A model generated the notes under the pieces. It was not told where the DNA came from. It saw nothing but the letters and a program-made list of their open reading frames with translations, and did not search any database. Of a stretch of DNA of 64,000 bases, positions 9,156 to 48,614 are shown one piece after another. The position numbers and the translations under genes were made by a program. The stretch is from an uncultured Candidatus Saccharibacteria bacterium (GTDB lineage Bacteria; Patescibacteriota; Minisyncoccia; UBA6257; 2-01-FULL-56-20): assembly GCA_964505005.1 (NCBI GenBank), contig CAZDFQ010000001.1, positions 114,458 through 178,457 on the forward strand, written 5' to 3'. The stretch's first letter is position 1, and each line of letters opens with the position of its first letter.

Positions 9156-10988
9156 CTACGCTACTTCTTGATTGTAGCATTCTTCGCAATACACGATTTC
9201 CGGACGCTCCGGCGCATAAGCGGTCTCGAACTCATTCGGGCAGGGTTCGGCCCCGTGAAAATGTCTCGTAGTATTTTCATAGACGATTTGCGTTTGGCTC
9301 TTGGCGCTTTGCAAGCCTGTGCACATACATTTCCGCTTCTGCAGTTTCATCGGATTCCGGTTTTTCAATCTTTCGGCATAGCGGCAGCTCGGGCACAAGC
9401 GCGGCAGGGGCAAGCCGAATCTTTTGTAGAAATCGAACTCGTTCCTGATGAACCGAAAAGCGCCGCCGCATCTCAAACAGCCGATGGTCTTGGCCAATAA
9501 ACTCTCGTCTGCGTCTTTGATATGGTCAGGTAAATCAACGGCTGGCACAGCAATCCAGAATTCTCTTTTCTTGGGCTCGCGCCAGAAATAGCCCCTGGCT
9601 TCGGCAGCGGCGCGGCTCAACGGATAATAATCCTGGGCCTTGGTCTCGTTATAGGCGAGCGGCGAAAATTCCGGCGGGAAAAACTCCCCATACTTGTAAA
9701 CAATTTCCCTTGTCTCTTGTCCCTTGCCTGCCCCGTTGGAAGCTTGCTTTCCTGCGGGGTTGCTTGTCACTCGTGAAATATAGGGCATTTCATCCATATG
9801 TCTGACAATTTTCTCCCGCAGAGAAAAATATTCATCTTTTGAATACTCTTTATTGAGAATGCAATACTGCTGTTTTTTCAGGCCAACGCAGCCGAAGAGA
9901 TCGGAAGAAGAATGGCAATTTACTGAATACTCCAAGTCGCGGCAGGCCGGCCAGCAATCAAAACAGAATTTTAAATTATGGCAGCTGTCGCCGCAATTCA
10001 CCGACTCATATATTAGTTCAACATTCTCGCCCCAATTGCTGTAATCATAAGAATCCTTAACATATTGGCTAGTATTATGAATGAATTTGGAATTTTCCAC
10101 GCCGCCCACCTCGTAACAATGACGGGCGTTCTTAGACCAATAAACATAGTCGCCGCTGATGTTAACGCAGTCCGGCGTCGAATGGATGTATTTAACCGGA
10201 AAATGCAAACGGAATTCCTCGAATTCTTTTTTTATTTTGAGAAGCGACTGATAAGAGCCAAGGTTAAATTCTTTGAGTTTTTTCTCGTGGTCCTCTTTGG
10301 TGTAGGGCGTGTTGAAAATATGATATTTTTTATGGCTCAAGCTGACGCAGCCAAAGCAATTCTGACAATCAGTACAATCCACTAAAAACCATGAATTCAG
10401 GCAGTCCGCCGCCTCTTCGCTGAAAAATACCTGATAACAATTGTTGACCCGATAGAGCTCATAACACAATTCACTGGAAAGAGTGCAATAAAAATCGAAA
10501 GAGCTGCGCATTCCAACAAACGCCACGCCGTAGGCACAATCTTCGCCATTGCCGGCGTTAAAACAGAGATAACAATTTTTCAAATAAGACGCCTTGTCAG
10601 AATAATCGCTATTTATCAGCCCCCTTATCGAACGCGAGGGCCAAGGCACCGAATAATAAAGTTCTTTGAACTGCTCGAAAAATGGCCGCGAGAAATCGTA
10701 ATCCCGGCCGTAATCCAGGGGATTCCATTTATCCGACCACCAGTAATCGTGCTCGTAAATTTTAAGCGGCGCTTCTTCTGGCCAGCCCGAAAACAACCCC
10801 TTGCCGGTTAAGCTGTCTTTGTTTCGAAAAAGATTATGCTCATTCCAGAAAATCAGCCGGCGCACGGCCCGGCACTCCGGACACCAGGTCGGCGCCGGCA
10901 CGCTCATTCTTTTGTAAAACTGAAAATCATCCGGCTCAATGACGAATTCCGATTTACAGTTTTGACATATTTTGGTTTCTCGAGTCAT
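9156..10988 (-). CDS. Cysteine-rich paralog 1 (610 aa). Zinc-ribbon-like motifs sit at both termini with internal Cys-rich repeats; family and function unknown.
   Basis: N-terminal CQNCKSEF...FYxKxxVPAPTWCPECR. C-terminal ...FxFYxxxxLPLPRLCPSCR...HFHGxxxCPNEFETAYAPERPEIVYCEECYN. Internal repeated NCFGCVxLxxKxYCIxNKxYSKxEY units. It shares all of these with the ORFs at 11183-12958, 13013-14842 and 38711-40489. Confidence 0.7.
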   Translation of the reverse strand: MTRETKICQNCKSEFVIEPDDFQFYKRMSVPAPTWCPECRAVRRLIFWNEHNLFRNKDSLTGKGLFSGWPEEAPLKIYEHDYWWSDKWNPLDYGRDYDFSRPFFEQFKELYYSVPWPSRSIRGLINSDYSDKASYLKNCYLCFNAGNGEDCAYGVAFVGMRSSFDFYCTLSSELCYELYRVNNCYQVFFSEEAADCLNSWFLVDCTDCQNCFGCVSLSHKKYHIFNTPYTKEDHEKKLKEFNLGSYQSLLKIKKEFEEFRLHFPVKYIHSTPDCVNISGDYVYWSKNARHCYEVGGVENSKFIHNTSQYVKDSYDYSNWGENVELIYESVNCGDSCHNLKFCFDCWPACRDLEYSVNCHSSSDLFGCVGLKKQQYCILNKEYSKDEYFSLREKIVRHMDEMPYISRVTSNPAGKQASNGAGKGQETREIVYKYGEFFPPEFSPLAYNETKAQDYYPLSRAAAEARGYFWREPKKREFWIAVPAVDLPDHIKDADESLLAKTIGCLRCGGAFRFIRNEFDFYKRFGLPLPRLCPSCRYAERLKNRNPMKLQKRKCMCTGLQSAKSQTQIVYENTTRHFHGAEPCPNEFETAYAPERPEIVYCEECYNQEVA

Positions 10989-11182: not shown

Positions 11183-12958
11183 TCAGATAACTTCTGCGTT
11201 GTAGCATTCCCGGCAATACACGATTTCCGACCGGTCCGGAGCAAAAGCTGCTTCAAATTCATTAGAGCAATGACTGGCGCCGTGAAAATGTTGCGCCTGA
11301 TTTTTATACACGCTGTTTTCGCTTCCTTGTCCCAGGCACTGACATTTTCTTTTCCAGAAGCGCAAAGGATGCGGCTGGTCCTTTAATTTTTCCCGCAAGC
11401 GGCAGAAAAAACACTGGCGCGGCAAAGGGACATTCATCTGCCTGGAGAATGAAAGTTCCTGCGGAATAATGCGAAAGGCGCGGCCGCAGGTCTTACAGCC
11501 GATGGTTTCTTTCAGAATCGACTCGGAAACATCGCGAATGTGGTCAGGAATATCGTCCGCTGGCAAAGTAATCTGATATTCTGTCGGTTCAACATCTTTC
11601 CATTCGTAACCCTGGGCTAAGGCCTCTTCTTTGCTTAAAGGAAAATAAACAAAGGCAAATGATTCGTTGTAAGCCAATGGCGAAAGCTCGAGTGGGAAAA
11701 ATTCGCCGTAGCGATATACCCTCCCTCGCTTATCTTTATAGGGAGCGGCTGACATTTGCTGGATAATCCTCGGCACAAGTTTTTCGTATTCCTCTTTGGA
11801 ATATTGTTTGTTAAGAATGCAATACTGCTTTTCCCGGAGCGAAACGCAGCCGAAAATATTGCTGCAGGCGTCTATACACATCCAGCCATACTGCACCTCG
11901 CGAAGATTGTCATAACAATTGGCCGTAAATTTTATGTTAAAAATATTCAAGCCGCTCATCGCCACTTCGTAAATCAATTCCGCCACGTCTCCCCAGGCAA
12001 AATAATCATAGGCGCTGGCTACCGGCTTTGTTTCAACAAATGAAACATAGCGAGAATCTTCTACGCCTTTCACCTCGAAGCATTTCTGGCAGTTTTTTGA
12101 TTCAAACACCAAAAGCCCGGTTACGTCCTTGGAAAATTCCTGCCAAGATGTTTTCACCGGATATTTCAGCCAGTGTTTTCTGGCTTCTTCTTTAAGCCAA
12201 GTATAAATTTTATACGAGCCGAGGTCCCATTCTTTGAGTTTTTCAAAATATTCCTCCTTAAGATAGGGCTTATTAAAAATGTAGTATTGTTTGTTCCGAA
12301 GATTGGCTGAAGCAAAACAATTCTGGCAGCCCCAGCACTGCCAGAGAAAAGCCGAGTTGTTCGATTCGTTGGTCCAGTTAAGATTCACGCCGCCATAATC
12401 TTTCCAGCAATGAAACAAGTCATAAGAATATTCGCAGGAATCGGCAAAAACAATGTTATAGCAATCTTTTGAACGATTGACAAAATGGCCATAAGCGCAG
12501 TTCTCAATGTAATCCGCTTCAATAAGAAGATAGCAGTTTTTGCCGTGGCCAAAGAGGTTGTTATACGGCGAAGTCGGCGAAAAAACCGGATAATCGGTCC
12601 ACAGCCCAAGGTGCGGTACGCGCCTCATCAGCTCGTCGAGCTGTTCGAAAAACGGTCTGGAAAAATCGTAGTCGCGGCCGTATTCCAGCGGGTCCCAATT
12701 GTCAGACCACCAACAAGAAGTGCAGTAAACCGTGTAGGGCTTATCTGCCGAGTAAACTGAAATGAATTCTTTACCGCACAAATCGCATTTTCTTTTGTAT
12801 AAACTGGCGAAACTGACCTGAGCCATCCGCCGCTGGAGCCGGCACTCCGGACACCAAGTCGGCGCCGGGACTTTTATTTTCTCGTAGAATAAAAAATCCT
12901 CGGGTTCTATTACGAACTCCGATTTGCAATTCTGACAAACCTTCTTTTCTGACTGCAT
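11183..12958 (-). CDS. Cysteine-rich paralog 2 (591 aa), which retains an extra CxxC...CxxC pair near the N-terminus.
   Basis: It has the same N- and C-terminal motifs as paralog 1. A second ribbon, CDLCGKEF...YCTSCWWSDNW, is present where paralog 1 has lost the cysteines. Confidence 0.7.
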   Translation of the reverse strand: MQSEKKVCQNCKSEFVIEPEDFLFYEKIKVPAPTWCPECRLQRRMAQVSFASLYKRKCDLCGKEFISVYSADKPYTVYCTSCWWSDNWDPLEYGRDYDFSRPFFEQLDELMRRVPHLGLWTDYPVFSPTSPYNNLFGHGKNCYLLIEADYIENCAYGHFVNRSKDCYNIVFADSCEYSYDLFHCWKDYGGVNLNWTNESNNSAFLWQCWGCQNCFASANLRNKQYYIFNKPYLKEEYFEKLKEWDLGSYKIYTWLKEEARKHWLKYPVKTSWQEFSKDVTGLLVFESKNCQKCFEVKGVEDSRYVSFVETKPVASAYDYFAWGDVAELIYEVAMSGLNIFNIKFTANCYDNLREVQYGWMCIDACSNIFGCVSLREKQYCILNKQYSKEEYEKLVPRIIQQMSAAPYKDKRGRVYRYGEFFPLELSPLAYNESFAFVYFPLSKEEALAQGYEWKDVEPTEYQITLPADDIPDHIRDVSESILKETIGCKTCGRAFRIIPQELSFSRQMNVPLPRQCFFCRLREKLKDQPHPLRFWKRKCQCLGQGSENSVYKNQAQHFHGASHCSNEFEAAFAPDRSEIVYCRECYNAEVI

Positions 12959-13012: not shown

Positions 13013-14842
13013 TTATACAACTTCAGCATTATAGCAGGCTTCGCAATAAACGATTTCCGGCCTGTCGGGAGCGTAAGATGTTTCAAATTCATTGGGGCAA
13101 TGGTTAGAGCCATGGAAATGCTTAACAGCATTCTGGTAGATTATTTCTTGGTTCTCGCCGGCCCGCGATGAGCTTGTCGAACCTGCGCATTGGCATTTCC
13201 TGTGCCAGAGTTTGAGAGGATTCCTTTGTTTAATTCTCTGATAATGGCGGCAGTTGGGGCAGAAACGGGGCAAAGGCAGATTCATTTTCCGGTAAAACTG
13301 AAGTTCCTGAGGGATAATTTTGAAGGCCGTGGTGCAGCCGGCCGCTTCTTGTTCAAGAGTCAAACCCTTTCGGGCACCGGCGTTGCTGGCGCATTCGATT
13401 ATTTCATCAAGCATGGAATCCTCGACATCCTTTATGCGGTCTGGCAGTTGGTCGGCGGTCATCGTTATTTTGTAATTTCTTTCTTCGGGTTCTTTCCAGC
13501 CGTAGCCCTGTTTCTCTGCTTCTTCTTTAGTCAGAAGAAAATATTCCTGGGCAATGGTTTCGTTATAGGCGAATGGAGAGAGTTCCGGAGGGAAGAATTC
13601 GCCATACTTATAGATTCTGCCTTTTTTATCTATATAAGGCAGAGAATCCATCTGCTCAATGAGGCGAGGCAATAATTTCTCGTATTCTTCTTTAGGGTAT
13701 TGCTTGTTCAGAATGCAGTAGGATTTGTTGCGGAGGCCGATGCAACCGAAAAGATTAGAAGAATTATGACAATTGAAACTATAAAATACATTGTATGAAC
13801 CATAGACAACGCTTGTGCTGATAAGATGATAGCTCTGTCTGTCTCCTGAATCGAAAACTTCGTACATCAATGAACCTAACCCCGCTCCGGGGCCGGCATC
13901 ATATGAATCTTTCAACTGGACGCCTGCCCATTCAAGAAATTTACAATCTTCGGCTCCCTGAGCAATATCAAAACAAAAATGGCAATTTTTAGAATTTTCA
14001 ATATGGTCGCCGGTGACATCTACTGACCTCTGGATAGAGGCATAGCGATGGATGGATTTTTTTAATTCTTCCCGAAAAAGCGCTCTGAATTTTAAAAGGT
14101 TCGAATATCTTCCTAAATCGAATTTCTCGATTTTTTTAAGATATTCCTCCTTTGAATATTGCTGATTAAAAATGCAATAGGATTTATTTCTGAGATTCAC
14201 ACAACCGAAGCAATTTGAACAATTTTTGCAATCGTAAAGAAAAAAGGAATCGGTGCAATTGCCGCAGTCATTACTAAAAAACAACCGATAGGCCTTTTCA
14301 CAAAAGAGGTCATCGTAGCAAAGTTGCGATTCAATGACAGTATAAAGGTCCATTGAGTCCTTAACATAGAGAATACGATTTGAATACATTGTATTCTCGA
14401 TAAAACCCGAGGCAGAAATAAGGTAGCAGTCCTTACTGTCCATAGCCACATTACAATACTCGCTGTTGATGGCATTAGTGTTAGAAAGAGCAATCAGCGG
14501 GAATTTATCCCGAAGCATCCGGAATTGCCGGAAAAATGGCTGAGAAAAATCGTAATCGCAACCGTAATCGAGCGGATTCCACTTATCCGACCACCAATAT
14601 TTTTGGTCGTAAACCGTAAGTTTTTTTTCGGGAGAATAAATAGAAATAATATCATTACCGAAAGCGTCCTTCCGTTTGTAAAGCATCCTTTCGTTCCTGA
14701 AAGCCATTCTCCTTTTAAGTCGGCACTCCGGACACCAAGTCGGCGCCGGAACCTTGATTTTTTCGTAGAACAGAAAATCCGAAGTGTCTATAGCGAATTC
14801 GCTCTGACAATTTTGACAAACTCTTTTTTCAGAAATAGCCAT
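13013..14842 (-). CDS. Cysteine-rich paralog 3. The ATG at 14840-14842 (MAISEKRVCQNC...) is the likely start; the longest ORF extends to 14878 via a TTG.
   Basis: Conserved family motifs are present. The start was chosen by homology with the paralogs, which all begin M-x4-6-CQNC. Confidence 0.65.
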   Translation of the reverse strand: MAISEKRVCQNCQSEFAIDTSDFLFYEKIKVPAPTWCPECRLKRRMAFRNERMLYKRKDAFGNDIISIYSPEKKLTVYDQKYWWSDKWNPLDYGCDYDFSQPFFRQFRMLRDKFPLIALSNTNAINSEYCNVAMDSKDCYLISASGFIENTMYSNRILYVKDSMDLYTVIESQLCYDDLFCEKAYRLFFSNDCGNCTDSFFLYDCKNCSNCFGCVNLRNKSYCIFNQQYSKEEYLKKIEKFDLGRYSNLLKFRALFREELKKSIHRYASIQRSVDVTGDHIENSKNCHFCFDIAQGAEDCKFLEWAGVQLKDSYDAGPGAGLGSLMYEVFDSGDRQSYHLISTSVVYGSYNVFYSFNCHNSSNLFGCIGLRNKSYCILNKQYPKEEYEKLLPRLIEQMDSLPYIDKKGRIYKYGEFFPPELSPFAYNETIAQEYFLLTKEEAEKQGYGWKEPEERNYKITMTADQLPDRIKDVEDSMLDEIIECASNAGARKGLTLEQEAAGCTTAFKIIPQELQFYRKMNLPLPRFCPNCRHYQRIKQRNPLKLWHRKCQCAGSTSSSRAGENQEIIYQNAVKHFHGSNHCPNEFETSYAPDRPEIVYCEACYNAEVV

Positions 14843-14844
14843 AG

Positions 14845-14958
14845 ATTTCAGTACAAATAGAGCGGAGTCCCGCACCAAGCTTTACTTTGGTGCGCGGGTT
14901 CCGGTTCGATAGGGAACTCGATTTTACAATTCTGGCAGGTCCTGCTCTCTGATTCCAT
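14845..14958 (-). pseudogene. Degraded N-terminal fragment of a further Cys-rich paralog (~37 codons).
   Basis: The minus-strand translation is MESESRTCQNCKIEFPIEPEP...AWCGTPLYLY*. It matches the family N-terminus (CQNCKSEFVIEPEDF...PTWCPEC) but carries deletions and a premature stop. Confidence 0.55.
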
Positions 14959-14968: not shown

Positions 14969-14994
14969 TTCTCTAATTCGAGCGAATTAGAGAA
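14969..14994. repeat. Family B palindrome copy overlapping the ArsR-family gene stop.
   Basis: TTCTCTAATTCGAGCGAATTAGAGAA, exact. Confidence 0.7.
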
Positions 14995-15256
14995 GAGTCA
15001 AAATATTCTTGGCAGCCACTGGCTTATCGTCTGCCAAACGATAAAACATCTGCAAACTTCTTTGTTCTTTCTCAACAATATCGGCAGCTGCCAGAATCGC
15101 CAGATGTTTGGAGGTCGCTTTGAAAGAAAGATTTATCTCATCAGCGATTTCTCCAACCGGCGCTTCGCGATGTTCTTTGAGATAGCGGAGAATTGCCAAT
15201 CGCCGCCGATTCGCCAAGGCCTTTAATTGTCTCTCCAATTCTTTTTCTTTCATCAA
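14987..15256 (-). CDS. ArsR/SmtB-family HTH transcriptional regulator.
   Basis: LANRRRLAILRYL...VGEIADEINLSFKATSKHLAIL winged-HTH pattern; 89 aa. Confidence 0.7.
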   Translation of the reverse strand: MMKEKELERQLKALANRRRLAILRYLKEHREAPVGEIADEINLSFKATSKHLAILAAADIVEKEQRSLQMFYRLADDKPVAAKNILTLL

Positions 15257-19237: not shown

Positions 19238-20998
19238 CTATTTCCTGATTTTCTCCATCGCGTATTTTACATCCACGCCGACTTTTTTGCGGGGGTTGAA
19301 AATGTTGAGCGGGTCGAAAATTTTCTTGACCTCTTCGAAAAGTTTATAAATTTTTTCGCCATACATCATTTTGAGATATGGTCCGCGAATCAAACCGTCA
19401 TTATGCTCGGCAGTGATGGACCCGCCGTATTCGAGAACGAGCTGGTAAATTTTTTCCATAGAATCGAACATAATCCGGGGAACTTCCGGGTCTTTAAGGT
19501 CAACCAGCGGAATAATGTGGAAATTGCCGTTGCCCGGATGGCCGGCAATGGTATAAATCAATTTATCTTTGTGTTCGTCGAGAATGGCGTTCACCTTCGG
19601 CAAAACTTCCGGCAGATATTCCGGCTTGACAATGACGTCGTCAACGAACGGCGCGGCGTATAATCCTTTGATATGACTGTGAAGAAGCGCGAAACTCTGG
19701 CGCCTGATGGTCCAGTATTTTTCCGCTTCTTCTTCGTTTCTGACGGCTCGGACTTGAACCGGAAACTTTTTCGCGGCCTCAATGACTGATTTTATTTTGC
19801 CATTCAATTCTTCTTCATCATCCGAACTCAATTGAACGAGAATGGCCATTCTCGGAATGCCGCCTTTTAAAACCAACCAAAATTCCGGCAGAAATTCGAA
19901 GGCGAGCTTGATGATGTTGCCTTTCATCATTTTAATGAGCGAAGGCAGAAATTTCAGGGCCAGACCAAGCGTTTTGTCGTCATAGGATTCGATGCTTTCT
20001 GGCTTGAAAGGCAGAATCATTTTCACCAGTTCCGGCACCGGCTCGAGAGTTTTAGAGAAAATGACAATGAGTCGTGAAAATTTTTTCTTTCTGACGAGCC
20101 GCAGCTTGGCTTCGGTCACAAGCCCCAGCGTACCCTGACTGCCGACGATAAGTTTTACAAGATTGAAACTCTTTTTGTCCCAGACATTCCAGAGGGCGTA
20201 GCCGGCCGAGTTTTTGGAAACATCCGGCTTGGCTTTTTTGATGGCTTCGTAATTTTTTTCAATAAGTTCGTAAATCTGCTTATAAATTCTGCCTTCGAAA
20301 GATTTTTCTTTTATTTTTTTCTGGAGCTCTTTTGCCGAAAGCGGTTTTATTTCGTGCTCTTCGCCGTCTGCCAAAACAATTTTCAGCGATTCCACATAAT
20401 CCTCGGTTTTTCCATATTCAAGGGTTTTCTCGCCGCCGGAGTTATTGCTGACCATTCCGCCGATGGCGCAAAGGTCTTTGGAAGCCGGAAAAGTCGGAAA
20501 AAGCAGACCTTTCTCGTCAAGGGCTCTCTCCAGGTCGCGATAGTAGACGCCGGGCTCAACCATAACACGACCACTACCCTCGCCAGAACGAGAACCGGAC
20601 ATTCCAACATTCTGCAGAATGTTGGAATGTTTTTTATTGGGAGATGGAGCCGAATCATCGGGAAGGACAACAATTTCCTTTATGTGGTTAAAATACTTAG
20701 TAAATGAAATGACTATCGAATCGTTGAGCGGGCCGCCGGACATATCCGTGCCGGCCGAGCGGGCAGTCAATGATAGCTTAGAGCTTTTTCCGCCCAAGGC
20801 GGATCCGCCTTGGGCGGAAGCTTTTAGTTTAGAGCTTACGAATTTTACGAGATTTTTGACATCTTCAGCGTCTTTCGGAAAAACAACCGCCTGGGGCGTT
20901 ATTTTAAAAATCGAGGCGTCAACGCTATATTCGTCCAAAATTTTCGGCTCAGCAGAAACATCGCCTTTTAGGATTTTTTTCAGGTCATTAATTAACAT
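19238..20998 (-). CDS. FAD-linked oxidase (GlcD / D-lactate dehydrogenase-like) carrying an in-frame palindromic insertion.
   Basis: It has the FAD-binding PCMH-type N-terminal domain and a C-terminal FAD-oxidase domain. A 30-nt perfect palindrome at 20600-20629 codes ...HSNILQNVGM... within a low-complexity SGSRSGEGSG segment. Confidence 0.65.
   Translation of the reverse strand: MLINDLKKILKGDVSAEPKILDEYSVDASIFKITPQAVVFPKDAEDVKNLVKFVSSKLKASAQGGSALGGKSSKLSLTARSAGTDMSGGPLNDSIVISFTKYFNHIKEIVVLPDDSAPSPNKKHSNILQNVGMSGSRSGEGSGRVMVEPGVYYRDLERALDEKGLLFPTFPASKDLCAIGGMVSNNSGGEKTLEYGKTEDYVESLKIVLADGEEHEIKPLSAKELQKKIKEKSFEGRIYKQIYELIEKNYEAIKKAKPDVSKNSAGYALWNVWDKKSFNLVKLIVGSQGTLGLVTEAKLRLVRKKKFSRLIVIFSKTLEPVPELVKMILPFKPESIESYDDKTLGLALKFLPSLIKMMKGNIIKLAFEFLPEFWLVLKGGIPRMAILVQLSSDDEEELNGKIKSVIEAAKKFPVQVRAVRNEEEAEKYWTIRRQSFALLHSHIKGLYAAPFVDDVIVKPEYLPEVLPKVNAILDEHKDKLIYTIAGHPGNGNFHIIPLVDLKDPEVPRIMFDSMEKIYQLVLEYGGSITAEHNDGLIRGPYLKMMYGEKIYKLFEEVKKIFDPLNIFNPRKKVGVDVKYAMEKIRK
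20600..20629. repeat. 30-nt perfect palindrome CATTCCAACATTCTGCAGAATGTTGGAATG, inserted in-frame in the FAD-oxidase CDS.
   Basis: Self-complementary, so both strands encode ...HSNILQNVGM... A related copy is at 38678-38703. Confidence 0.75.
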
Positions 20999-23411: not shown

Positions 23412-24350
23412 CTATTTTCTTTTGCTTTTAAGCAATTTCCAGGCCTCGGGATTATTAACTCTGAAGTTAATCTTACTAGAAGAAGTATTTGAATCATCCG
23501 GTAAATATTCTCGTTTATTATTTTTGCTCTGATACAAAATCTTAAATTCGGCATCCTTAAACAAAGAATTATTGATGCCTAATTTATTTTTAATAATATC
23601 TAAGTATTGTTCATTTATTTCATAGCCGATAGAACTTCTGCCTAAAGAAGCCGCGGCCTTCGTAGTTGTCCCGCTCCCCAAAAAGGGATCAAGCACTGTT
23701 TCGCCAACAAAGCTAAACATTTTAATAATCCGCCTTGGTAGTTCTTCTGGAAACATAGCAATATGACCATTTTGTTTTACGCCGGCGAAATTCCAATGGC
23801 CCGTGAAATATTTCCTCCATTCTTCTTTGGTTAGCTTTGATTTTTCTTTAATTTCATCGCTTATATTATTTGGAGATTTTCCTAACTTTTTAAAAATTAA
23901 AATAAATTCATAGTCAATTTCTATCAAGCCGTTGCGAGGATAAGGAAAAGAACCCATTACTGAAGCGCCCCCAGTGGTATTCATTGTTGTTTTTTTCTGC
24001 CAAATAATTGCCCCCATATAATCAAACCCTATTGATTCGCAAAACCTAATTATCTCTTCGCGAATAGGGATTATTTTGTAGCGTCCGTAAGTAACTGCCC
24101 GGGCAAACTGGTCTCCGATGTTAATTATTAAACGGCAACCTGGATAAAGAACGCGATAGCATCCCTGCCACACTTTATTCAAATTCTCTATGTACCCCTC
24201 ATAAGTATCATTAAAACCAATCTGTTCAATTGAGCCGTAATCTTTCAACTGCCAATATGGCGGCGAAGTAACAACAAGGTGAGCTGATTCATCCTTGAGC
24301 TCTGTCATACCGCGCGAATCTCCAACTATTATTTTATGTGTGGTTTTCAT
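23412..24350 (-). CDS. Beta-class DNA methyltransferase (N6-adenine or N4-cytosine; ParB-less).
   Basis: Motif IV SPPY (VVTSPPYWQ) is N-terminal and motif I DPFLGSGTT is C-terminal, which is the beta-class order. Confidence 0.8.
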   Translation of the reverse strand: MKTTHKIIVGDSRGMTELKDESAHLVVTSPPYWQLKDYGSIEQIGFNDTYEGYIENLNKVWQGCYRVLYPGCRLIINIGDQFARAVTYGRYKIIPIREEIIRFCESIGFDYMGAIIWQKKTTMNTTGGASVMGSFPYPRNGLIEIDYEFILIFKKLGKSPNNISDEIKEKSKLTKEEWRKYFTGHWNFAGVKQNGHIAMFPEELPRRIIKMFSFVGETVLDPFLGSGTTTKAAASLGRSSIGYEINEQYLDIIKNKLGINNSLFKDAEFKILYQSKNNKREYLPDDSNTSSSKINFRVNNPEAWKLLKSKRK

Positions 24351-24370
24351 AATTTATATGCTTTCATCAA

Positions 24371-25054
24371 TTATAGCACGTCATCGGCATAAATTTCTAG
24401 GCCGGATTTCGTCTTTTTATAAAAGATAATTTTTACTCCAATTTCTTCTCTAAGAGCATTCTTAGTCTTGTATGTTATCGGTTTTATTGAGACCGGCGTC
24501 TTATCTATAAAACCATCAATTCCTCTGGATTCTTCTTCTGGAGTCGCTAAACGATAAGAGGTATCTTTCAAATTGGCAATCTTTTTCAAAACCGCCTCTT
24601 GGAACCGTAAACCAACAAATGTTTTTTCTAATACTAAATCCTCTACCCAGATTTCAACCATATCTTTGTCTATTCTACCTATTGCCTCTTTTAATTTCTC
24701 AATCATATCATTAATTTTTCCAGAGGCATTTTTAATAGCACTTGGATAATTTTCAAGGCACCATTCTTTCCACGCTCCGTAAGTTTTAGCTTTAGATGAT
24801 TTTACAAGTTCGGAAAGCTGCCCAACAACCCTAGGTCGCGTTCCTTGAGAATTTTGATTAGCAAGATTAATAATTTGGGTTGTATATTTCGGGAATTCTT
24901 TAATCTCACCTATCAGCTCACGAATTAATTCTTCGTTTTTTATTTTAATCATCATGTTTTTACTCCCTCTATCTCTTATAAATCGCTTCTTTGATTTCCT
25001 GCCGGGCTGCCTTAATTCTTTATAATTATGGGCCGTTTTAAGGTCAGAGGACAA
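24371..25054 (-). CDS. Putative type II restriction endonuclease partner of the methyltransferase.
   Basis: It lies 20 nt upstream in the same orientation as the MTase and shares the AT-rich island. A possible PD...(D/S)xK-like segment is GIDGFIDKTPVSIKP. Apart from that possible segment, the call rests on context. Confidence 0.35.
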   Translation of the reverse strand: MSSDLKTAHNYKELRQPGRKSKKRFIRDRGSKNMMIKIKNEELIRELIGEIKEFPKYTTQIINLANQNSQGTRPRVVGQLSELVKSSKAKTYGAWKEWCLENYPSAIKNASGKINDMIEKLKEAIGRIDKDMVEIWVEDLVLEKTFVGLRFQEAVLKKIANLKDTSYRLATPEEESRGIDGFIDKTPVSIKPITYKTKNALREEIGVKIIFYKKTKSGLEIYADDVL

Positions 25055-25705: not shown

Positions 25706-28078
25706 TTATTCCCTTAACCGCTTGTAAATTTCCTCCTCGATTTCTTGGCGGTCCCTGCCGTATTTGGCGCGGGACTGGTTTTTCAGCCGGTCGGCCAGCT
25801 GGCGGTCGCCGCGCTCGAGCGCTAGGGTTTCGATGTTGAACGGCTTGGTGGTTTGGCCATTGACGAGAATTTTCACATAGGCATTGAAATTGTCGATGTT
25901 CAATAAATCGTTCTGGCTGAAAACCGGCTCGAACTGTTTGATCAGAAACTCGGCATCCTGGGCCCCGACCCGGAAAACAATCTGCGAGCCGACATTGCCG
26001 AAAACCGCGTCCCGGATTTTTTCCGTCAGCTGGGCGATGAACTGATGCGCCATCGTCAAGTTCAGGCGATACTTGCGCGCCTCGGAAAGAATCGTGGAAA
26101 TGGAATCAGTGGTGAAATTCTGGAACTCGTCAATGTAGAGATTGAAGTCGCGGCGCTTTTCGACTTCGGGAATGTCCACGCGCGAGAGCGCGGCCATCAA
26201 GAGTTTGCCGCTGAAAATCATCCCCAGCAGGCCGGCATTGATGTCGCCGATCCGGCCCTTGGAAAGATTGACTAAAAGAATCTTGCCTTCATCAATCACA
26301 TAACGGAAATTGAAAGCGGATTTGGGCTGGCCGATGACTGGCCGCATATAATCGTTGGCGATGAAATTGTTGAATTTGGAAGTGATGTAGGGCGTCATAT
26401 TGGCAAGCGAGGCCTCGCCGCCGGCTTTAACCGCTTCTTTCTCCCAGAAATCAATGACCACCGGGTTTTGGATTCTTTCCAGTTTGCGAAGACGATATTC
26501 GCTGTCCGTGAAAATCCGCGGCACTTCAATAAGCGTTGCCGGCTCGTTAGGCATATCTTCCATCAACAGCAGCAAAGCATTCCGCATATACTGTTCGAAC
26601 ATCGGCCCCATGGTTTCCGGCGGAAAAAGCTTGTTGAAAATCCCCTGCATTTCGTTGACGATGAAAGTTTTTTCTTCGGGTCGGTTGAAAGAATATTCGA
26701 GCATATTCAAGCCGAGCGGCCGGAAAATGTCCGCGGTGTCGAAATAAATCACATCTTCGAGGCGATTTGACGGAATATAGCCGAGAGCGTTCTCGGCCAA
26801 ATCGCCGTGCGGGTCAATGATGGCCACGCCTTTACCTTTGGTAATGTCGTCAATAATCATATTGCCAAGCAAGGTGGATTTGCCGGTGCCGGTCTGGCCA
26901 ATGATGTAAATATGCCGGCGGCGGTCATCGTCGGTTATCCGGACCTCGCGGTATTCCCCGCGGAAGCGGCTGCGGCCGATTAAAACACCGGCGGCCGGCA
27001 GATTGGACGGCGGCTCGGATTCTTTGGCTTTGAGCCATTTGATGCGCGGAGTTTCCGTGGAAGAAATCGGCAGATGATAAAGGCTCGCCAGTTCTTCGGA
27101 ATTCAAAATCATGGTTTCCCGGGAACTGAAATTCCGGAAACTCAATTCATAAGCCAGTCGTTGAACATTCCTTGATTTGACAACTTTGAAGTCGTTTCGC
27201 ATCGGGCTGGCGAACTGGCTGAAGCTAGCAATCAGGCCGTCGAGAATGTCGTTCGCCTGGAACGGGGTGCCGCCCGAAGCGGCCAGCCGGACATTGACCT
27301 CGAAAAGCGGCTTAGAAATTTTGGCGGTCAGGGCCTTAACTGCTTCCTCGTCAACGACTTTTTCTTCTTTCTTTTTTTCTTCTTTTTCGGGCGCGAGGGC
27401 TTCTTTCAGTTCCTCGGGCTGGAAAGGAAATTCCTGGCCGAGCACGCGCTTCAAGGGCTTGCCAACTTTCAGGCTTCTGATGTAGGCCTCGATTTTCTTT
27501 TTCTTGTCTTTGTCAGCCGGCTTGACGACGAGCTGGAGCATTGCGCCTTCGCCGACTTCGTTTATTTTGGAAAAAGAACCGGCAATCGCCGCAAAAGTGT
27601 CCAAGCCGATTTCCTGGTAAGTCCTGATGGGCAAAGCGTAACTTTCCGACTGCAAAAGATAAGCAGCCGCCGCGGCTCCCTGAGAATTAAAAATGTTGTA
27701 ATCGTCGGCCGCCCGCTCCACCGAAGCCGCCCGCCACAACCCCTGAATCTGTTTAACAGCCACTTCGCTCAAAACCCGCGGCACCGCCAGATAAAAATGA
27801 ATTTCCTCGCCGATGTGCGGCACCGCCACTTCCAGAACAAAGGGCTTTTTGAGTGCCGCCAAATTGCTCAATAATTGTTCGGTTAAATTTATCTCCTGCT
27901 TGAAATCTTTTTGGGCTGAACCAGCAGCCGGCGCTTCTTTGGGGATTTTTATGAGGAATAAAACCAGGCCAAGGGATTCCCTGAGCCGGCGCTTTTGCCA
28001 GAAACGAAAAATCAAATAAACCGCGGCGGCCAAGGCGCCTATGAATAAAACAACGGCTAAAAATATCAGAAAGGGCAT
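25706..28078 (-). CDS. Membrane-anchored P-loop ATPase of the FtsK/HerA/TraG-VirD4 superfamily (T4SS coupling-protein-like).
   Basis: N-terminal TM helix, Walker A GQTGTGKST, Walker B-like LYIDEFQNF, 790 aa. Confidence 0.45.
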   Translation of the reverse strand: MPFLIFLAVVLFIGALAAAVYLIFRFWQKRRLRESLGLVLFLIKIPKEAPAAGSAQKDFKQEINLTEQLLSNLAALKKPFVLEVAVPHIGEEIHFYLAVPRVLSEVAVKQIQGLWRAASVERAADDYNIFNSQGAAAAAYLLQSESYALPIRTYQEIGLDTFAAIAGSFSKINEVGEGAMLQLVVKPADKDKKKKIEAYIRSLKVGKPLKRVLGQEFPFQPEELKEALAPEKEEKKKEEKVVDEEAVKALTAKISKPLFEVNVRLAASGGTPFQANDILDGLIASFSQFASPMRNDFKVVKSRNVQRLAYELSFRNFSSRETMILNSEELASLYHLPISSTETPRIKWLKAKESEPPSNLPAAGVLIGRSRFRGEYREVRITDDDRRRHIYIIGQTGTGKSTLLGNMIIDDITKGKGVAIIDPHGDLAENALGYIPSNRLEDVIYFDTADIFRPLGLNMLEYSFNRPEEKTFIVNEMQGIFNKLFPPETMGPMFEQYMRNALLLLMEDMPNEPATLIEVPRIFTDSEYRLRKLERIQNPVVIDFWEKEAVKAGGEASLANMTPYITSKFNNFIANDYMRPVIGQPKSAFNFRYVIDEGKILLVNLSKGRIGDINAGLLGMIFSGKLLMAALSRVDIPEVEKRRDFNLYIDEFQNFTTDSISTILSEARKYRLNLTMAHQFIAQLTEKIRDAVFGNVGSQIVFRVGAQDAEFLIKQFEPVFSQNDLLNIDNFNAYVKILVNGQTTKPFNIETLALERGDRQLADRLKNQSRAKYGRDRQEIEEEIYKRLRE

Positions 28079-29054: not shown

Positions 29055-30881
<1,827 letters not shown>

Positions 30882-31689: not shown

Positions 31690-31790
31690 AATTGGCAACG
31701 AGGAGAAAGTAAATGAGAATACATTTATTTTCGGCGAGCCCTGCCTGCCGGCAGGCAGGGAACCGATTGAGGAAACGAAGTTTCAATGAT
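31690..31790. repeat. Family A repeat copy (reverse orientation, CCTGCCTGCCGGCAGGCAGG module).
   Basis: AATTGGCAACGAGGAGAAAG...GGCGAGCCCTGCCTGCCGGCAGGCAGGGAACCGATTGAGGAAACGAAG. Confidence 0.65.
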
Positions 31791-37535: not shown

Positions 37536-38678
37536 TCAAGACACGAATTTTCCCACAATGTCGGTTTCATATTCCAAACGCCGGCTTTTGGCTTCAGCCG
37601 CGTCAACTACGGCTTGTTCGATTAAATCGGAAATTTGCTGTTTGAAAGAAATACCGCTCGCTTCCCAGAGATAAAAAGCCATTGAGCCGGGAATGGGATT
37701 AATTTCGGTAAGATAAAGTTTTTTATCATTGGTGTACATAAAATCAATCCGCACCATTCCCTTGCACCGGCAGGCCACAAAGGCCTTTTTGGCCGATTCC
37801 TGCAAACGCTTTTTCAGGTCATCGTCTATTTTGGCCGGTAATTCCCTTTGCAAAGACGCCATGCCGGCGCCGGTTTTTTTGCCGCCCCGCTGGTATTTAT
37901 CGGCAAAACTCAAGATTTCATCTTTGGAAAAAGGCCGCTCGATTTCGCTCGCTTCTACTTTGCCGCCAACGACCCTGACGCTGCAGTTGTATTCGACAAA
38001 CGAAGAAAGATATTTTTCCACCAGAATTTCATTGTCAATAAAAGCTGCTTCCAGCAAAAATTTTTCCAGCTCCACTTCGCTGCGGCTGATTTTAATGCCG
38101 ATGCTTGACCCCAGATGAACCGGCTTGATGATGGCCGGTAAACCGAGTTTTTGAATGATTTTTTTGCTGGAGTTTTCCACATCTTCTTTAATTTCAAAAG
38201 AAAATAATCTCGAGCCGGGCGCGGTCTCAATCCCGGCTTCGCTGACGACCTGTTTCGTCAAATACTTGTTCATCGTCAACACTGACGCTTCCTGATTGGG
38301 AGAAGTGAAAGGAATGCCGATGGTTTCAAAAAGCCCCTGGAGAGGGCCGCTTTCTCCCTGGCCGCCGTGGAAAGCGAAATAAGCCGCATAAGGATAAATT
38401 TTTTTAGGCAACCAGCGGCCGGTTTTCATAAAACCGCCGCGGGCATCCAAGCCGAACACTACCGGCTTCCGGGAAGAGCGGAAAAAGCCGCTCCGATTTT
38501 TAAGCTGCGGCAGATAAAGAATCTCGCCTTTTTTGGCCAGATAAATCACATAAGGCTCGTAAAGGCCGGTGTCAATATTTTCAAGAACCTGCAGACCGGT
38601 AATGACTGAAACCTCGTGCTCGGAAGACACGCCGCCGAAAGCGATGATAACGGGTTTAACCATAAGATAATCAGACAT
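37536..38678 (-). CDS. ddl: D-alanine--D-alanine ligase (ATP-grasp).
   Basis: N-terminal IIAFGGVSSEHEVSVITG; ATP-grasp C-terminal domain; 380 aa. Confidence 0.7.
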   Translation of the reverse strand: MSDYLMVKPVIIAFGGVSSEHEVSVITGLQVLENIDTGLYEPYVIYLAKKGEILYLPQLKNRSGFFRSSRKPVVFGLDARGGFMKTGRWLPKKIYPYAAYFAFHGGQGESGPLQGLFETIGIPFTSPNQEASVLTMNKYLTKQVVSEAGIETAPGSRLFSFEIKEDVENSSKKIIQKLGLPAIIKPVHLGSSIGIKISRSEVELEKFLLEAAFIDNEILVEKYLSSFVEYNCSVRVVGGKVEASEIERPFSKDEILSFADKYQRGGKKTGAGMASLQRELPAKIDDDLKKRLQESAKKAFVACRCKGMVRIDFMYTNDKKLYLTEINPIPGSMAFYLWEASGISFKQQISDLIEQAVVDAAEAKSRRLEYETDIVGKFVS

Positions 38679-38703
38679 TCTAACATTCTGCAGAATGTTA
38701 GAA
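38678..38703. repeat. 26-nt perfect palindrome TTCTAACATTCTGCAGAATGTTAGAA between the paralog 4 stop and the ddl start codon.
   Basis: It shares the AACATTCTGCAGAATGTT core with the 20600 copy. It differs by a symmetric (compensatory) A/C..G/T change in the arms. Confidence 0.7.
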
Positions 38704-38710
38704 TATTAAT

Positions 38711-40489
38711 TTAGACCACTTCGATATTATAGCATTTCTCACAATAAACAATCTCCGGCCTTTCCGGCGCGTAAGCCGTCTCAAATTCATTCGGACAATG
38801 ATTAACGCCGTGAAAATGGCTGGTTTGATTTTGATAAACCGCATTCTCTGATTGCTCGCCCGCACACTGACATTTCCGATGCCACAGCTGTAATGGGTTC
38901 AACCACTTCAGCCGTTCTTCGTGCCGGCAGTTCGGACAAAGACGAGGTAGAGGGAGGTTCATTATTTTATAAAATTGAACTTCTGCTTGCGTAATTTTAA
39001 ATGCCGAAGTGCACTGATGTTCACACCCGCTCTTATGCAAACAACCAATGACTTCCTCGGTTAGTTCATCAGGAATATCTCGGACGTTATCTGGCAGTTT
39101 TTCAGCCAGTAAACTGATGCGATAATTCTTCTCTTCATAATCTTTCCATGGGAACCCCTCATCAATAGTCTCTTTTTTGTTAAGCGGATAATACAATTGC
39201 GCAACTGTTTCATTATAAGCAAAAGGAGAAAACTCTGGCGGAAAAAATTCTCCAAAGCGATATTCTAATCCTCGAGCACCGCGATAGGGTATCTCTATCA
39301 TTTGTCGTTTAATTCCTGAAACAAGACGCTCATATTCGCTTTCAGAATACTGCTTATTAAAAATGCAGTATGATTTTTGTCGCAGGCTGATACAGCCGAA
39401 AACATCATGGCAGTTATCTATATACTCGGAATAACATACATTATGACCAGTCCAACAACGATTGGTAAACGTTACGCGGTAAACTGAAAGGGCAATGTTT
39501 AAATCTTCATATAAAAGCTCGGCGTTTTCTCCGGCAGTATCCACATCATACACATCGTGGATATTATTCAAAATATGAAGCGAATATTTACAATTCTCCG
39601 CCTGATAGGCAAAAAAGCAATGCCGGCAGTTTCTAACGTCAGTCATATAATTGCCCGTTGAATTAACTCCGTTAATAATATCAACAAAACGCCGCGGTTG
39701 GGTTAGATAAAAAGCTTCTACTTTTTTTGCCGCTTTTTCAATCCCGGTTCGGGTTATCAAGTTGAAACTGTTTAAAGTTTCCTCATACTCTTCTTTAGTA
39801 AGTTGTTTATTAAAAATGCAATATTTTTTGTGACGAATATTAATGCAACCGAAACAATTGTGGCAATCAAAGCAATATTTTAAAAACCAGCTCTCGCTGC
39901 AGTTGTATATGGCGGGGTAACTATAACGCACCTTGAACGAATCGAAAGCGGCATTGGTCTCATAGCAGAGTTCTACGCGAGTGCCATAAGCATTATCCAC
40001 ACTATCTTTGCAGTGTTGCATCCAATAGCCGTGCTGAAGATTTTCGTTATAGGAACTCTCTACAAGAAAGTAGCAATTTTTATTATTGGTTGACAAATGA
40101 GAGTAATGAGTATTTAGGCTGTTGCGATTTATGAGAGCGATTCTCGGCACTTTATCTGACAGCTTTTTCCACTGCTCGAAAAACGGTTTTGAGAAATCAT
40201 ATTCCTGGCCGTAAAAAAGAGGGTCCCAGTGGTCTGACCAGTAGCATTCTTGACAATAAATCGGAAAGGGAGCTGAGACGGAATAAATTGAGATAACGTC
40301 TTTTTTGCAAAGCCCGCATTGGCGGCGATAAAAATTCCGCTCATTGCGAAAAACAGCGCGCCTCGCTGTTCGGCACTCCGGGCACCAAGTGGGCGGCGGG
40401 ACGCGGAGGCGATCGTAGAAATTAAAGTCATCCGACTCAATCGTGAACCGGTTCTTACAGTTCTGGCAAGTTTTTGTTTCAGGGGTCAT
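38711..40489 (-). CDS. Cysteine-rich paralog 4 (592 aa) of the family at 9.1-14.9 kb.
   Basis: N-terminal CQNCKNRFTIESDDFNFYDRLRVPPPTWCPECR and C-terminal ...LPLPRLCPNCR...HFHGVNHCPNEFETAYAPERPEIVYCEKCYN. Confidence 0.7.
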   Translation of the reverse strand: MTPETKTCQNCKNRFTIESDDFNFYDRLRVPPPTWCPECRTARRAVFRNERNFYRRQCGLCKKDVISIYSVSAPFPIYCQECYWSDHWDPLFYGQEYDFSKPFFEQWKKLSDKVPRIALINRNSLNTHYSHLSTNNKNCYFLVESSYNENLQHGYWMQHCKDSVDNAYGTRVELCYETNAAFDSFKVRYSYPAIYNCSESWFLKYCFDCHNCFGCINIRHKKYCIFNKQLTKEEYEETLNSFNLITRTGIEKAAKKVEAFYLTQPRRFVDIINGVNSTGNYMTDVRNCRHCFFAYQAENCKYSLHILNNIHDVYDVDTAGENAELLYEDLNIALSVYRVTFTNRCWTGHNVCYSEYIDNCHDVFGCISLRQKSYCIFNKQYSESEYERLVSGIKRQMIEIPYRGARGLEYRFGEFFPPEFSPFAYNETVAQLYYPLNKKETIDEGFPWKDYEEKNYRISLLAEKLPDNVRDIPDELTEEVIGCLHKSGCEHQCTSAFKITQAEVQFYKIMNLPLPRLCPNCRHEERLKWLNPLQLWHRKCQCAGEQSENAVYQNQTSHFHGVNHCPNEFETAYAPERPEIVYCEKCYNIEVV

Positions 40490-40520: not shown

Positions 40521-40832
40521 CTAAACCTTTATAATCTCCAGTTCAGTGTACGGCTGGCGGTGGCCTTTTTTCTTGCGATAGCGGGTTTTGGAGTGATAAC
40601 GGAAAACGATTTTCTTTTTGGCTCTCCCTTGTTTTACGATTTTGGCTTCAACTTTTCCGCCGTTAAGATAAGGAGTGCCGATTTTGACATCATCGCCGTC
40701 AACGCGCAAAAGGACTTTGTCAAAAACAAAATTACCGCCTTCTCCGGCAGCCAATTTTTCAACTCTGATTTTTTGGCCGGGAGAAGTTTTGTATTGTTTG
40801 CCGCCGGTCTCGATGATGGCAAATGAAGACAT
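40521..40832 (-). CDS. rplU: 50S ribosomal protein L21.
   Basis: MSSFAIIETGGKQYKTSPGQKIRVEKL, canonical L21 N-terminus; 103 aa. Confidence 0.85.
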   Translation of the reverse strand: MSSFAIIETGGKQYKTSPGQKIRVEKLAAGEGGNFVFDKVLLRVDGDDVKIGTPYLNGGKVEAKIVKQGRAKKKIVFRYHSKTRYRKKKGHRQPYTELEIIKV

Positions 40833-41284: not shown

Positions 41285-41310
41285 TTCTCTAATTCGAGCG
41301 AATTAGAGAA
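41285..41310. repeat. Family B palindrome copy 3' of the galT-like gene, next to a tandem octamer repeat.
   Basis: TTCTCTAATTCGAGCGAATTAGAGAA, exact. Confidence 0.7.
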
Positions 41311-44424: not shown

Positions 44425-44452
44425 CCGGTGTTATGCTGTAGCATAACACCGG
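44425..44452. repeat. Family C palindrome copy between mreD and mrdA.
   Basis: CCGGTGTTATGCTGTAGCATAACACCGG. Confidence 0.7.
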
Positions 44453-48235: not shown

Positions 48236-48393
48236 GCTGAATATAAAACAATGTTATCATAACAATTGTTGATAGGCAAAATCCGTTTTATCTGCGCCGC
48301 TGGGCCATCGCCGTTATGATGTGCCCTAGCGACAGGCCGACTTATTGCTGCGCTTTTCATTTTACTCGGCGGCCTTATGAAAAAAGTTTAATC

Positions 48394-48420
48394 AAGTGTT
48401 ATGCCTGGGCATAACACTTG
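48394..48420. repeat. Family C palindrome copy (first of a pair 170 nt apart) between mraY and proS.
   Basis: CAAGTGTTATGCCTGGGCATAACACTTG. Confidence 0.7.
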
Positions 48421-48593
48421 ATTATTCCGTCGCGTTATAAATAGCCGGCTATCTCGACTGCTGATAAAACCTATTTGGAGATGCGAATATCGCCGATTTT
48501 GAAAAGGTTGTGGGAGTGAAGAGTTATAGAAGCGAGAGGATTATGGAAGTTGAACTTCAATAGAGGGTTTCAATAATAGTTGCTTACTAGAAG

Positions 48594-48614
48594 TGTTATG
48601 CCCGGGCATAACAG
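48594..48614. repeat. Family C palindrome copy (second of the pair) 42 nt 3' of the mraY stop.
   Basis: GTGTTATGCCCGGGCATAACAG. Confidence 0.65.

Follow-up and report, generated by a model that had tools for sequence, protein, structure and literature searches.

What are the large cysteine-rich proteins that recur along a 64,000-nucleotide stretch from an uncultured Candidatus Saccharibacteria bacterium (contig CAZDFQ010000001.1, assembly GCA_964505005.1; the whole stretch is hereafter the window), and with what do they work? The question was raised by the minus-strand open reading frame (ORF) at 38711..40489, here called copy D, which starts with ATG and encodes 592 residues, 35 of them Cys (5.9%). 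A preliminary description of this DNA had reported that the ORF carries the terminal signatures CQNCKNRFTIESDDFNFY...PPPTWCPECR at the N-terminus and LPLPRLCPNCR...CPNEFETAYAPERPEIVYCEKCYN at the C-terminus, that it lies 24 kb from a tandem array of related genes, and that at least four intact copies are present in 64 kb. The ORF is real and both signatures are there verbatim. A family hidden Markov model (HMM), used to find copies throughout the window, gives exactly four full-length members, all on the minus strand; copy D scores 891 bits over profile positions 1-591 and is 23.8 kb from copy C, the nearest of the array. Our analysis goes beyond that description on two points, namely that the copies are ancient subfamilies and that the family is specifically linked to genes for VirD4-like ATPases. 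We tentatively propose, from the sequences and their genomic neighbourhoods, that the family proteins may be cytoplasmic, zinc-stabilised partners, either adaptors or clients, of orphan ATPases resembling type IV coupling proteins (T4CPs), and that variable surfaces of their modules may give each paralogue a specificity of its own.

The three other copies form the array: copy A (9156..10988, 610 residues, 34 Cys), copy B (11183..12958, 591 residues, 32 Cys) and copy C (13013..14878, 621 residues from a TTG start), each identified by the family HMM and by alignment. For copy C the ATG at 14842 (MAISEKRVCQNC..., 609 residues) is a likelier start than the TTG. Together the four copies occupy 7.25 kb, or 11% of the window. 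They are 43-49% identical end to end. The N-terminal ribbons reach 49-65% identity and the C-terminal ones 54-67%, against 31-38% for the core (residues 120-400); copy D is 43-46% identical to the three tandem copies over the full length and 31-36% in the core. Better conservation of the termini than of the cores (49-67% against 31-38%) is in keeping with domain shuffling, in which the terminal ribbons alone would be shared and the cores would be unrelated. However, the cores align without large gaps at this level of identity and have invariant Cys and Tyr residues in common, and the family HMM spans positions 1-591 in each copy. Since the cores are homologous, domain shuffling fails as an explanation, refuted by core homology together with full-length HMM coverage, and we leave it practically no probability. 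The true paralogy that had been proposed is borne out by this end-to-end homology, cores included, and the four copies are ancient paralogues.

Mapping of conserved and variable cysteines, the check suggested in the preliminary description, identifies 20 Cys that are invariant in all four copies of the window. The quartet Cys58/61/79/82 behaves as one unit, being retained by copies D and B and missing from A and C, which is what a dispensable Cys4 site would show. Each copy in the window is 50-56% identical to copies in other genomes, compared with 43-49% to its paralogues in the same genome, and a single comparison locus (L003) holds C-, A-, B- and D-like copies. Because they are closer to copies in other genomes than to their in-genome paralogues, the copies are old, maintained subfamilies, neither recently amplified nor homogenised by gene conversion. 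We note that a 36-codon minus-strand ORF at 14848..14958 (MESESRTCQNCKIEFPIEPE...) matches profile positions 1-20 only (hmmsearch E=3.6e-5). This ORF (MESESRTCQNCKIEFPIEPEPAHQ...), upstream of copy C, has nothing in common with the family beyond its first 20 residues, and an imperfect hairpin comes after it. Either a fifth copy was deleted here and left this scar, or the ORF is possibly a short upstream reading frame belonging to copy C.

The family is far larger than this window. Searched against 5.8 billion proteins, it gave more than 6,600 matches, the best 120 of which have 507-633 residues, nearly all with 99-100% coverage, at 44-59% identity. Every named match is a "hypothetical protein" of Patescibacteria (Wolfe-, Lipton-, Jorgensen-, Niyogi- and Staskawiczbacteria, Paceibacterota, Minisyncoccia), and nearly none of the family matches has a precomputed Pfam domain. 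A profile search made exhaustively over 1.84 billion cluster representatives (50% identity) found 5,275 clusters with the threshold set at E<=1e-3 and 2,293 with E<=1e-30, and two family subtypes can be told apart, with and without the profile segment ~541-562. Scanning of GTDB species representatives gave at least 573 relatives and returned 78 loci; the loci are all from Patescibacteria-type metagenome-assembled genomes, except for one 2-kb contig binned as Gammaproteobacteria that is probably mis-binned. The family is seen almost only in Patescibacteria/Paceibacteria. No member was found by tblastn in 50,697 phage records, nor any relative in IMG/VR contigs, and a viral or mobile origin was rejected on these grounds; our literature searches found no description of the family. 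NCBIfam holds nothing for it beyond a sub-threshold TIGR04272 match, and the core has neither a Pfam nor an NCBIfam model. The family could be placed in no described family or system and is rated here as outside the known kinds; where we speak of a system the word refers to gene-neighbourhood statistics.

To describe the genomic surroundings we used a sample of 82 fetched loci, each of at most 22 kb. Full-length copies number none in 1 locus, one in 39, two in 15, three in 16, four in 4, five in 3, six in 1, eight in 1 and nine in 2. Two to nine copies are thus present in 42 of the 82 loci, almost always as same-strand tandems, and the 3+1 arrangement of the window is typical for the clade. 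The preliminary description had suggested that a notable share of the genome is devoted to these proteins, which is plausible by analogy, since as many as 9 copies occur within 17-22 kb in related genomes.

The top cluster among neighbouring ORFs is that of a T4CP-like ATPase, with 44 genes in 26 of the 82 loci, and Pfam places these ATPases among TrwB/TraG/VirD4-type coupling proteins. A median of 135 bp separates an ATPase gene from the closest copy of the family; 27 of the 44 lie within 300 bp, and 42 of the 44 are on the same strand. The ATPase fills 26 of the 197 gene slots immediately adjacent to family copies (the next cluster fills 4), and its adjacency within loci has a Fisher odds ratio of 6.7 (p=2.6e-9). 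Its density is ~50-fold above the published ~2 T4CPs per genome if 800 genes per genome are assumed (PMC12102498). This adjacency recurs in several candidate phyla. Recurrent cassettes run in the order sigma-r4/HARE-HTH gene, ATPase, small membrane protein or CutA1, copy, copy, ATPase and onwards. Some of the neighbouring ATPases are soluble and carry a zf_Tbcl_2 finger (E=1e-14), which matches family profile positions 45-91, the segment described below as ribbon B. In Nomurabacteria-type loci (L050, L052 and L076; also L061 and L015) the cassettes are interleaved with grpE, dnaK and dnaJ in the manner DnaK...ATPase-copy...ATPase-DnaJ-copy, which reflects lineage synteny or else hints at a chaperone connection.

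The window has an ATPase of this kind at 25706..28078 on the minus strand, a VirD4/TrwB/TraG-like P-loop protein of 790 residues with an N-terminal membrane anchor. It matches Pfam DUF87, TrwB_AAD_bind (27.3 bits, cutoff 20.5), TraG-D_C (26.3, cutoff 22) and T4SS-DNA_transf (21.1, cutoff 20.1), all above cutoff. It is 74% identical to an ATPase seated between family copies in a Liptonbacteria locus (L016), where the protein has a hydrophobic N-terminus followed by KRRLR and where the gene order is copy-copy-ATPase-FAD oxidase-PGK-copy-copy. The window retains the order ATPase...FAD oxidase...PGK...C-B-A as a backbone, lengthened by inserted DNA, part of which is a restriction-modification pair of MjaI type with low GC. 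Between the window and this locus the ATPases are 74% identical, the FAD oxidases 62.5-66% and the PGK proteins 65%, compared with 40-47% for family copies at matching positions. Because its copies are 40-47% identical where their neighbours are 62-74% identical, the family evolves faster than the genes around it. Almost the whole length of the window ATPase also matches phrog_5156 (function unknown; E=5e-79), and the protein has relatives at 22-26% identity in large Bacillus phages, for example phage G gp156.

The predicted architecture of the proteins is consistent with a conserved frame around variable modules. An AlphaFold2 model of copy D, made from a 118-sequence alignment, has a pLDDT of 92.6 and a pTM of 0.90, and its layout runs ribbon A, an optional ribbon B, a linker, two modules, an acidic middle, ribbon A', a basic Cys/His insert and ribbon B'. 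Ribbon A (residues 1-47 of copy D; 40349..40489, minus strand as for all parts that follow) holds the invariant C8, C11, C36 and C39 and is followed by a conserved Arg-rich helix (R40, R43, R44). The optional ribbon B (residues 48-90; 40220..40348) has the pattern CxxC-x17-CxxC (C58, C61, C79, C82). A first beta-solenoid-like module with helices covers residues 120-262 (39704..40132; DSSP of the model), and a second with one helix covers residues 263-400 (39290..39703), recognised by hhalign to module 1 and modelled separately with a pLDDT of 89.4. The conserved acidic middle (residues 401-478; 39056..39289) has conservation of 0.77-0.83 and a median isoelectric point (pI) of 4.8, and among the proteins of the loci it is found only in family members. 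Its consensus reads PY..YKYGEFFPPELSPFAYNETIAQ.., with RFGEFFPPEFSPFAYNETVAQ in copy D, and over the whole of residues 401-478 YKYGEFFPPELSPFAYNET... The C-terminal part, delimited by its Cys pattern and by profile comparison (residues 479-592; 38714..39055), consists of ribbon A' (C483, H485, C489, C493, C518, C521), the insert (C540, C542, H558, H560) and ribbon B' (C565, C583, C586).

Profile-profile comparison with hhalign reveals internal repetition in this layout. The two modules, at residues 116-262 and 263-400, are homologues of each other (probability 99.9%, E=2.7e-37). Ribbon A (1-47) has its homologue in A' (476-531; E=7e-15), and ribbon B (48-90) is related to the last ribbon (555-592; E=1.9e-6). 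Module 1 of copy D ends in the motif C206-x2-C209-x2-C212-FG-C215, and the conserved pattern at module ends is C..C.NCFGC..L..K.YCI.NK.Y.KEEY. Conservation is 0.7-0.85 in the termini, module ends and middle and 0.40-0.51 in the module bodies; for module 1 it is 0.41-0.51 in the body and 0.73 at the end. In the beta-rich modules an aromatic residue recurs roughly every 11-13 positions. No hydrophobic segment was found in the family protein (KD19 at most 1.0), nor any signal peptide or membrane segment, and the pI is ~6.4 for the whole protein, ~9 for A' with the insert, and 5.3-6.9 (median) for the modules. We conclude from these features that the family protein is probably soluble and cytoplasmic.

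The fold predicted for these proteins is confident, yet without a real relative in the Protein Data Bank (PDB). A PDB sequence search with the four-copy profile gave nothing relevant. Beta-helix and beta-solenoid proteins (AlbG, Qnr and MfpA; CARP/TBCC/RP2; left-handed beta-helix acyltransferases) are the sole Foldseek neighbours of the modules. Left-handed beta-helix enzymes, which came up with E ~4e-4 when the full-length model was compared with the PDB, were rejected as generic repeat similarity (TM 0.08, root-mean-square deviation 16-20 Å). A single-module model gave no significant match in the PDB (best E=0.19, TMq at most 0.37, all beta-helix proteins), and against BFVD only local zinc-ribbon matches appeared. 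No Hexapep or Pentapeptide Pfam model matches the family. Membership of the hexapeptide-repeat transferases is excluded by the lack of a Hexapep match and of a superimposable left-handed beta-helix fold (TM 0.08, deviation >16 Å), and membership of the pentapeptide-repeat proteins by the lack of a Pfam match, by module Foldseek values of E >=0.19 and TMq <=0.37, and by the whole-protein pI of 6.4. Unlike the pentapeptide-repeat DNA mimics, the family does not have an acidic pI, and it carries a Cys motif at its module ends.

The terminal ribbons can be related to known zinc fingers. C8-x2-C11...C36-x2-C39 is invariant in 118 sequences, as is C518-x2-C521; the ribbons thus have the two CxxC knuckles of a predicted Cys4 site of the zf_Tbcl type. 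Against zf_Tbcl (PF13451, gathering cutoff 24 bits) copy A scores 29 bits at residues 500-541, copy B 19.1, copy C 16.6 and copy D 14.8. The CxxC-x17-CxxC spacing is exact in ribbon B of copies D and B, and the last ribbon reads C565-x17-C583-x2-C586, with His in place of a first-knuckle Cys. For zf_Tbcl_2 (PF23477, cutoff 27) and TIGR04272 (cutoff 36) the best scores, 19.8 and 18.5 bits, are those of copy B at residues 562-588, below cutoff, and copy D has no match. Among 78 family members, Pfam at E<=0.01 finds zf_Tbcl in 19 and zf_Tbcl_2 in 8. All four terminal ribbons of the family have the two-knuckle CxxC...CxxC layout of these models, but the models cover ~40 residues each, and the ~400 residues of modules and middle have none. 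Small CxxC-x17-CxxC proteins of Methanosarcina mazei bind zinc, as measured by inductively coupled plasma mass spectrometry (PMC12704099). We infer that the family ribbons bind structural zinc, with four to five predicted sites per chain.

Such a content of cysteine raises the question of whether the proteins might instead buffer or store metals (Zn, Cu) or take part in thiol redox chemistry, as a large metallothionein-like reservoir. The 5-6% Cys and 20 invariant positions are in agreement with this, as are an ArsR-family regulator gene directly upstream of the array, ArsR-like genes with CxC in 4 other loci, and CutA1 (divalent ion tolerance) between ATPase and family copy in 4 loci. However, the cysteines are arranged as in structural ribbons, within a protein of 590 residues that is well folded (pLDDT 92.6), and not as in a low-complexity, Cys-dense sponge, and metallothionein-like sponges, which are short, with ~20-30% Cys and little regular structure, can be rejected as the class to which this family, at 5-6% Cys and predicted to be well folded, belongs. 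The ArsR protein of the window has no Cys or His sensing site, ArsR/CutA1 adjacency is far rarer than that of the ATPase (4 against 26 slots), and the variable modules and old subfamilies would be left unexplained. We regard a metal-buffering role as very unlikely.

Our preferred, tentative reading is a partnership with the ATPases. In this model, family proteins would act in the cytoplasm as partners of the orphan, hexameric, type-IV-coupling-protein-like ATPases of Patescibacteria. The middle and the ribbon ends, which carry invariant Arg/Lys-rich helices, may form a common docking surface that binds the ATPase and/or nucleic acid. The fast-evolving faces of the two modules may give each paralogue its own target specificity, which would account for the persistence of several old subfamilies next to one another. 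The resemblance to known T4CPs (VirD4/TrwB/TraG) and their clients is that family genes adjoin T4CP-like ATPase genes as substrate or adaptor genes do, and that a zinc finger is common to ATPase and family protein. In contrast to those systems there is no relaxase, no virB genes are nearby and no known type IV secretion system (T4SS) signal is present, and no known client resembles the family in sequence or fold. An analogy, and only that, may be drawn with EssC, the FtsK/SpoIIIE-type ATPase of type VII secretion, where the gene of an ASCE-type ATPase is likewise followed by an array of diversified paralogues; here there is no homology, the family members are large zinc proteins and not WXG/LXG helical hairpins, and no other type VII secretion components are present.

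Several points weigh against a partnership of this kind. No ATPase is present in the fetched sequence of 56 of the 82 loci, and no copy in the window adjoins one, the distance being 10.6-10.8 kb. The loci are phylogenetically related, and the adjacency counts are not independent. The finger common to ATPases and family scores weakly (E ~1e-4), and motifs are the sole basis for predicting zinc sites. The link to the ATPase is, as judged from the sequences, purely genomic and statistical, and it is not universal.

The family proteins might instead be exported substrates of the ATPases, that is, effectors that the VirD4-like ATPase passes to the patescibacterial T4SS or another export route and that act inside the host cell or on its surface. 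Recruiting substrates is what T4CPs normally do, T4SSs are important for the epibiotic lifestyle (PMC12102498), and the ATPase linkage and cassettes, with multi-copy arrays that could be an effector arsenal and cores that evolve faster than the flanking housekeeping genes, would fit such a role. Yet among 5,713 VirD4-like T4CPs in 2,918 patescibacterial genomes only 148 are near virB4, relaxases are very few, the T4CPs have perhaps been exapted for other functions, and a T4CP was non-essential in the one organism tested (PMC12102498). No virB genes recur among the family's neighbours in the 82 loci, and no VirB-like protein was found among ~39 window proteins scanned against Pfam. In addition, a chain of 590 residues with four to five predicted zinc sites and 20 invariant Cys is poorly suited to unfolding-dependent export and to work outside the cell under oxidising conditions. 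The chain ends in an acidic, conserved zinc ribbon rather than in a typical T4SS signal, which is disordered and positively charged, and the subfamilies are old and conserved across genera, not strain-variable. Export as effectors is in our view unlikely.

The setting of copy D bears on a further alternative. As first described, the gene lies between ddl (37536-38678, minus strand; Pfam Dala_Dala_lig_C, E=2e-40) and rplU (40521-40832, minus strand; Pfam Ribosomal_L21p, E=1e-34). The three genes rplU, D and ddl are all on the minus strand with intergenic gaps of 31 and 32 nt, and the strongest minus-strand promoter-like site is upstream of rplU; because of these short gaps and this site, co-transcription of rplU-D-ddl is likely. 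The closest orthologue of copy D comes after a ribosomal-protein cluster. It might be asked whether the family consists of nucleic-acid-binding or translation/transcription zinc-ribbon factors that act independently of the ATPase, whose adjacency would then be inherited synteny. The invariant Arg/Lys-rich helices after the ribbons, the basic C-terminal ribbons, the place of copy D in this operon-like context and the recurrence of a sigma-r4/HARE-HTH gene near the cassettes could all be accommodated in this way. However, the adjacency of rplU and D is not conserved among the other genomes examined, which rules out a ribosomal-operon link as a family trait, and the overall pI is near neutral. 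Housekeeping factors of this kind are rarely kept in 3-9 diverged copies in genomes below 1 Mb, and the ATPase adjacency recurs across several candidate phyla. We therefore consider this alternative unlikely. Under the preferred partnership with the ATPase, copy D would probably be expressed constitutively, because of its housekeeping, operon-like context, and would work in trans with the ATPase 10.6 kb away.

The dispersed palindrome that had been noticed directly after the stop codon of copy D proves to be a perfect 28-bp palindrome, ATTCTAACATTCTGCAGAATGTTAGAAT, at 38677-38704, between that stop and the ATG of ddl, and it takes up nearly the whole 32-nt gap. A second copy, at 20599-20630, has 2 mismatches with the symmetry kept, where the chance expectation is 0 matches. 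In RNA the 28-bp palindrome folds into a hairpin of -17.1 kcal/mol (z=-3.7), with the ddl AUG within its 3' arm. The ddl ATG (38678-38676), which overlaps this arm, has no clear Shine-Dalgarno sequence before it, and five codons further on there is another ATG in the same frame. Translation of ddl could be influenced by the hairpin, or the hairpin could mark a site where the mRNA is processed.

A role in anti-phage defence or another conflict is suggested by other features of the loci; the variable modules would sense invaders and the ATPase, of the HerA/FtsK superfamily, would be motor or effector. The ATPase matches PADLOC mad8 (E=1e-15), HerA models and phrog_5156 over its full length, the window ATPase has a restriction enzyme of MjaI type and a methylase as neighbours in DNA of low GC, a PemK toxin gene lies inside the array of L003, and the family core is fast-evolving. 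The family itself, however, gives no support in the defence and phage databases. Neither copy D nor copy A has a PADLOC match, and against PHROGs copy D has none and copy A only a marginal 30-residue match (E=0.003). Nuclease domains and effector domains of other kinds are lacking. Tandem arrays of as many as 9 copies and long-lived subfamilies are atypical of defence islands, as are the housekeeping contexts (rplU-D-ddl, ribosomal and aminoacyl-tRNA synthetase neighbours), and neither the phage records nor the viral contigs contain a family member. Taken together, these points make a conflict role rather improbable.

The remaining features of the window are given here for completeness. The restriction-modification pair (23412-25054, minus strand), an MjaI-type endonuclease (E=4e-64) and an N6/N4 DNA methylase, has low GC (0.39) and is immediately downstream of the VirD4-like ATPase; it is probably an inserted island that interrupts the synteny with L016. 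The ArsR-family helix-turn-helix regulator upstream of the array (14990..15253, minus strand; 88 residues, no Cys; HTH_5 E=7e-10) is bracketed by two identical 26-bp palindromes at 14969-14994 and 15290-15315. Two 32-bp perfect palindromes, at 20599-20630 and 20788-20819, lie inside the FAD-linked oxidase ORF (19238-20998, minus strand). They coincide with in-frame insertions relative to the L016 orthologue, such as the 11-residue ASAQGGSALGG, and resemble the Rickettsia palindromic elements, which insert into coding sequences.

At least four further families of dispersed perfect palindromes, with stems of 10-20 bp, are mostly intergenic, several of them right after gene ends. They occur at 4757-4778, 5050-5075, 6583-6622, 7515-7554, 9003-9024, 11155-11178, 14969-14994, 15290-15315, 31739-31760, 41285-41310, 44425-44452, 48389-48424 and 48594-48613. 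The families comprise TTCTCTAATTCG-NN-CGAATTAGAGAA (4 copies), CCTGCCTGCCGGCAGGCAGG flanked on each side by G or C (3 copies), GTGTTATGC...GCATAACAC (4 copies, one of them just past the stop codon of copy B) and an AT-rich pair of 40 bp, and they look like REP-type elements, terminators or operators. At 88-2487 (minus strand) a 799-residue ORF with a TTG start combines glucose-6-phosphate dehydrogenase (G6PD_N and G6PD_C, residues 34-487) with a 6-phosphogluconate-dehydrogenase-like NAD-binding and C-terminal domain (505-778), and would be a fusion of both oxidative pentose-phosphate dehydrogenases. A multi-pass membrane protein of 608 residues (29055-30881, plus strand) has no Pfam match and contains at two positions a near-identical ~47-residue repeat, QMTNQAQ.PNDKNFSNL.F.RPSQPKRLLRWSRRFDWRFGFWIL, possibly another inserted or duplicated element in coding sequence.

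Patescibacteria have genomes of ~0.6-1 Mb and have shed most biosynthesis. Retention of three to nine copies of a 1.8-kb gene by many Paceibacteria nevertheless argues for an important lineage-specific function. The finding exceeds what was first noticed at this locus, in that it concerns a very large, unmodelled, Paceibacteria-specific family, of confident but unmatched predicted fold, that is specifically linked, in its gene neighbourhoods, to orphan coupling-protein ATPases. The linkage bears on the open question of what role is played by the thousands of orphan T4CPs that lie far from virB4 and without relaxases, and it offers a concrete candidate partner for them; a 2025 survey of T4SSs analysed the neighbours of T4CPs for relaxases only (PMC12102498). 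More speculatively, the family and the orphan VirD4-like ATPases, accompanied in places by a sigma-r4/HARE-HTH regulator and a small membrane protein, might form a Paceibacteria-specific, ATPase-coupled system not described before, in which diversified zinc-ribbon/beta-solenoid adaptors pick cargoes (DNA, RNA or proteins) for a coupling-protein motor exapted from conjugation to another use. Should the ATPase hypothesis prove wrong, the family would still be a good structural and biochemical target, with a new beta-solenoid-like module and four to five predicted zinc sites per chain. If such a system does exist, it would be a major unrecognised part of the exchange of material with the host by these ultra-small symbionts.

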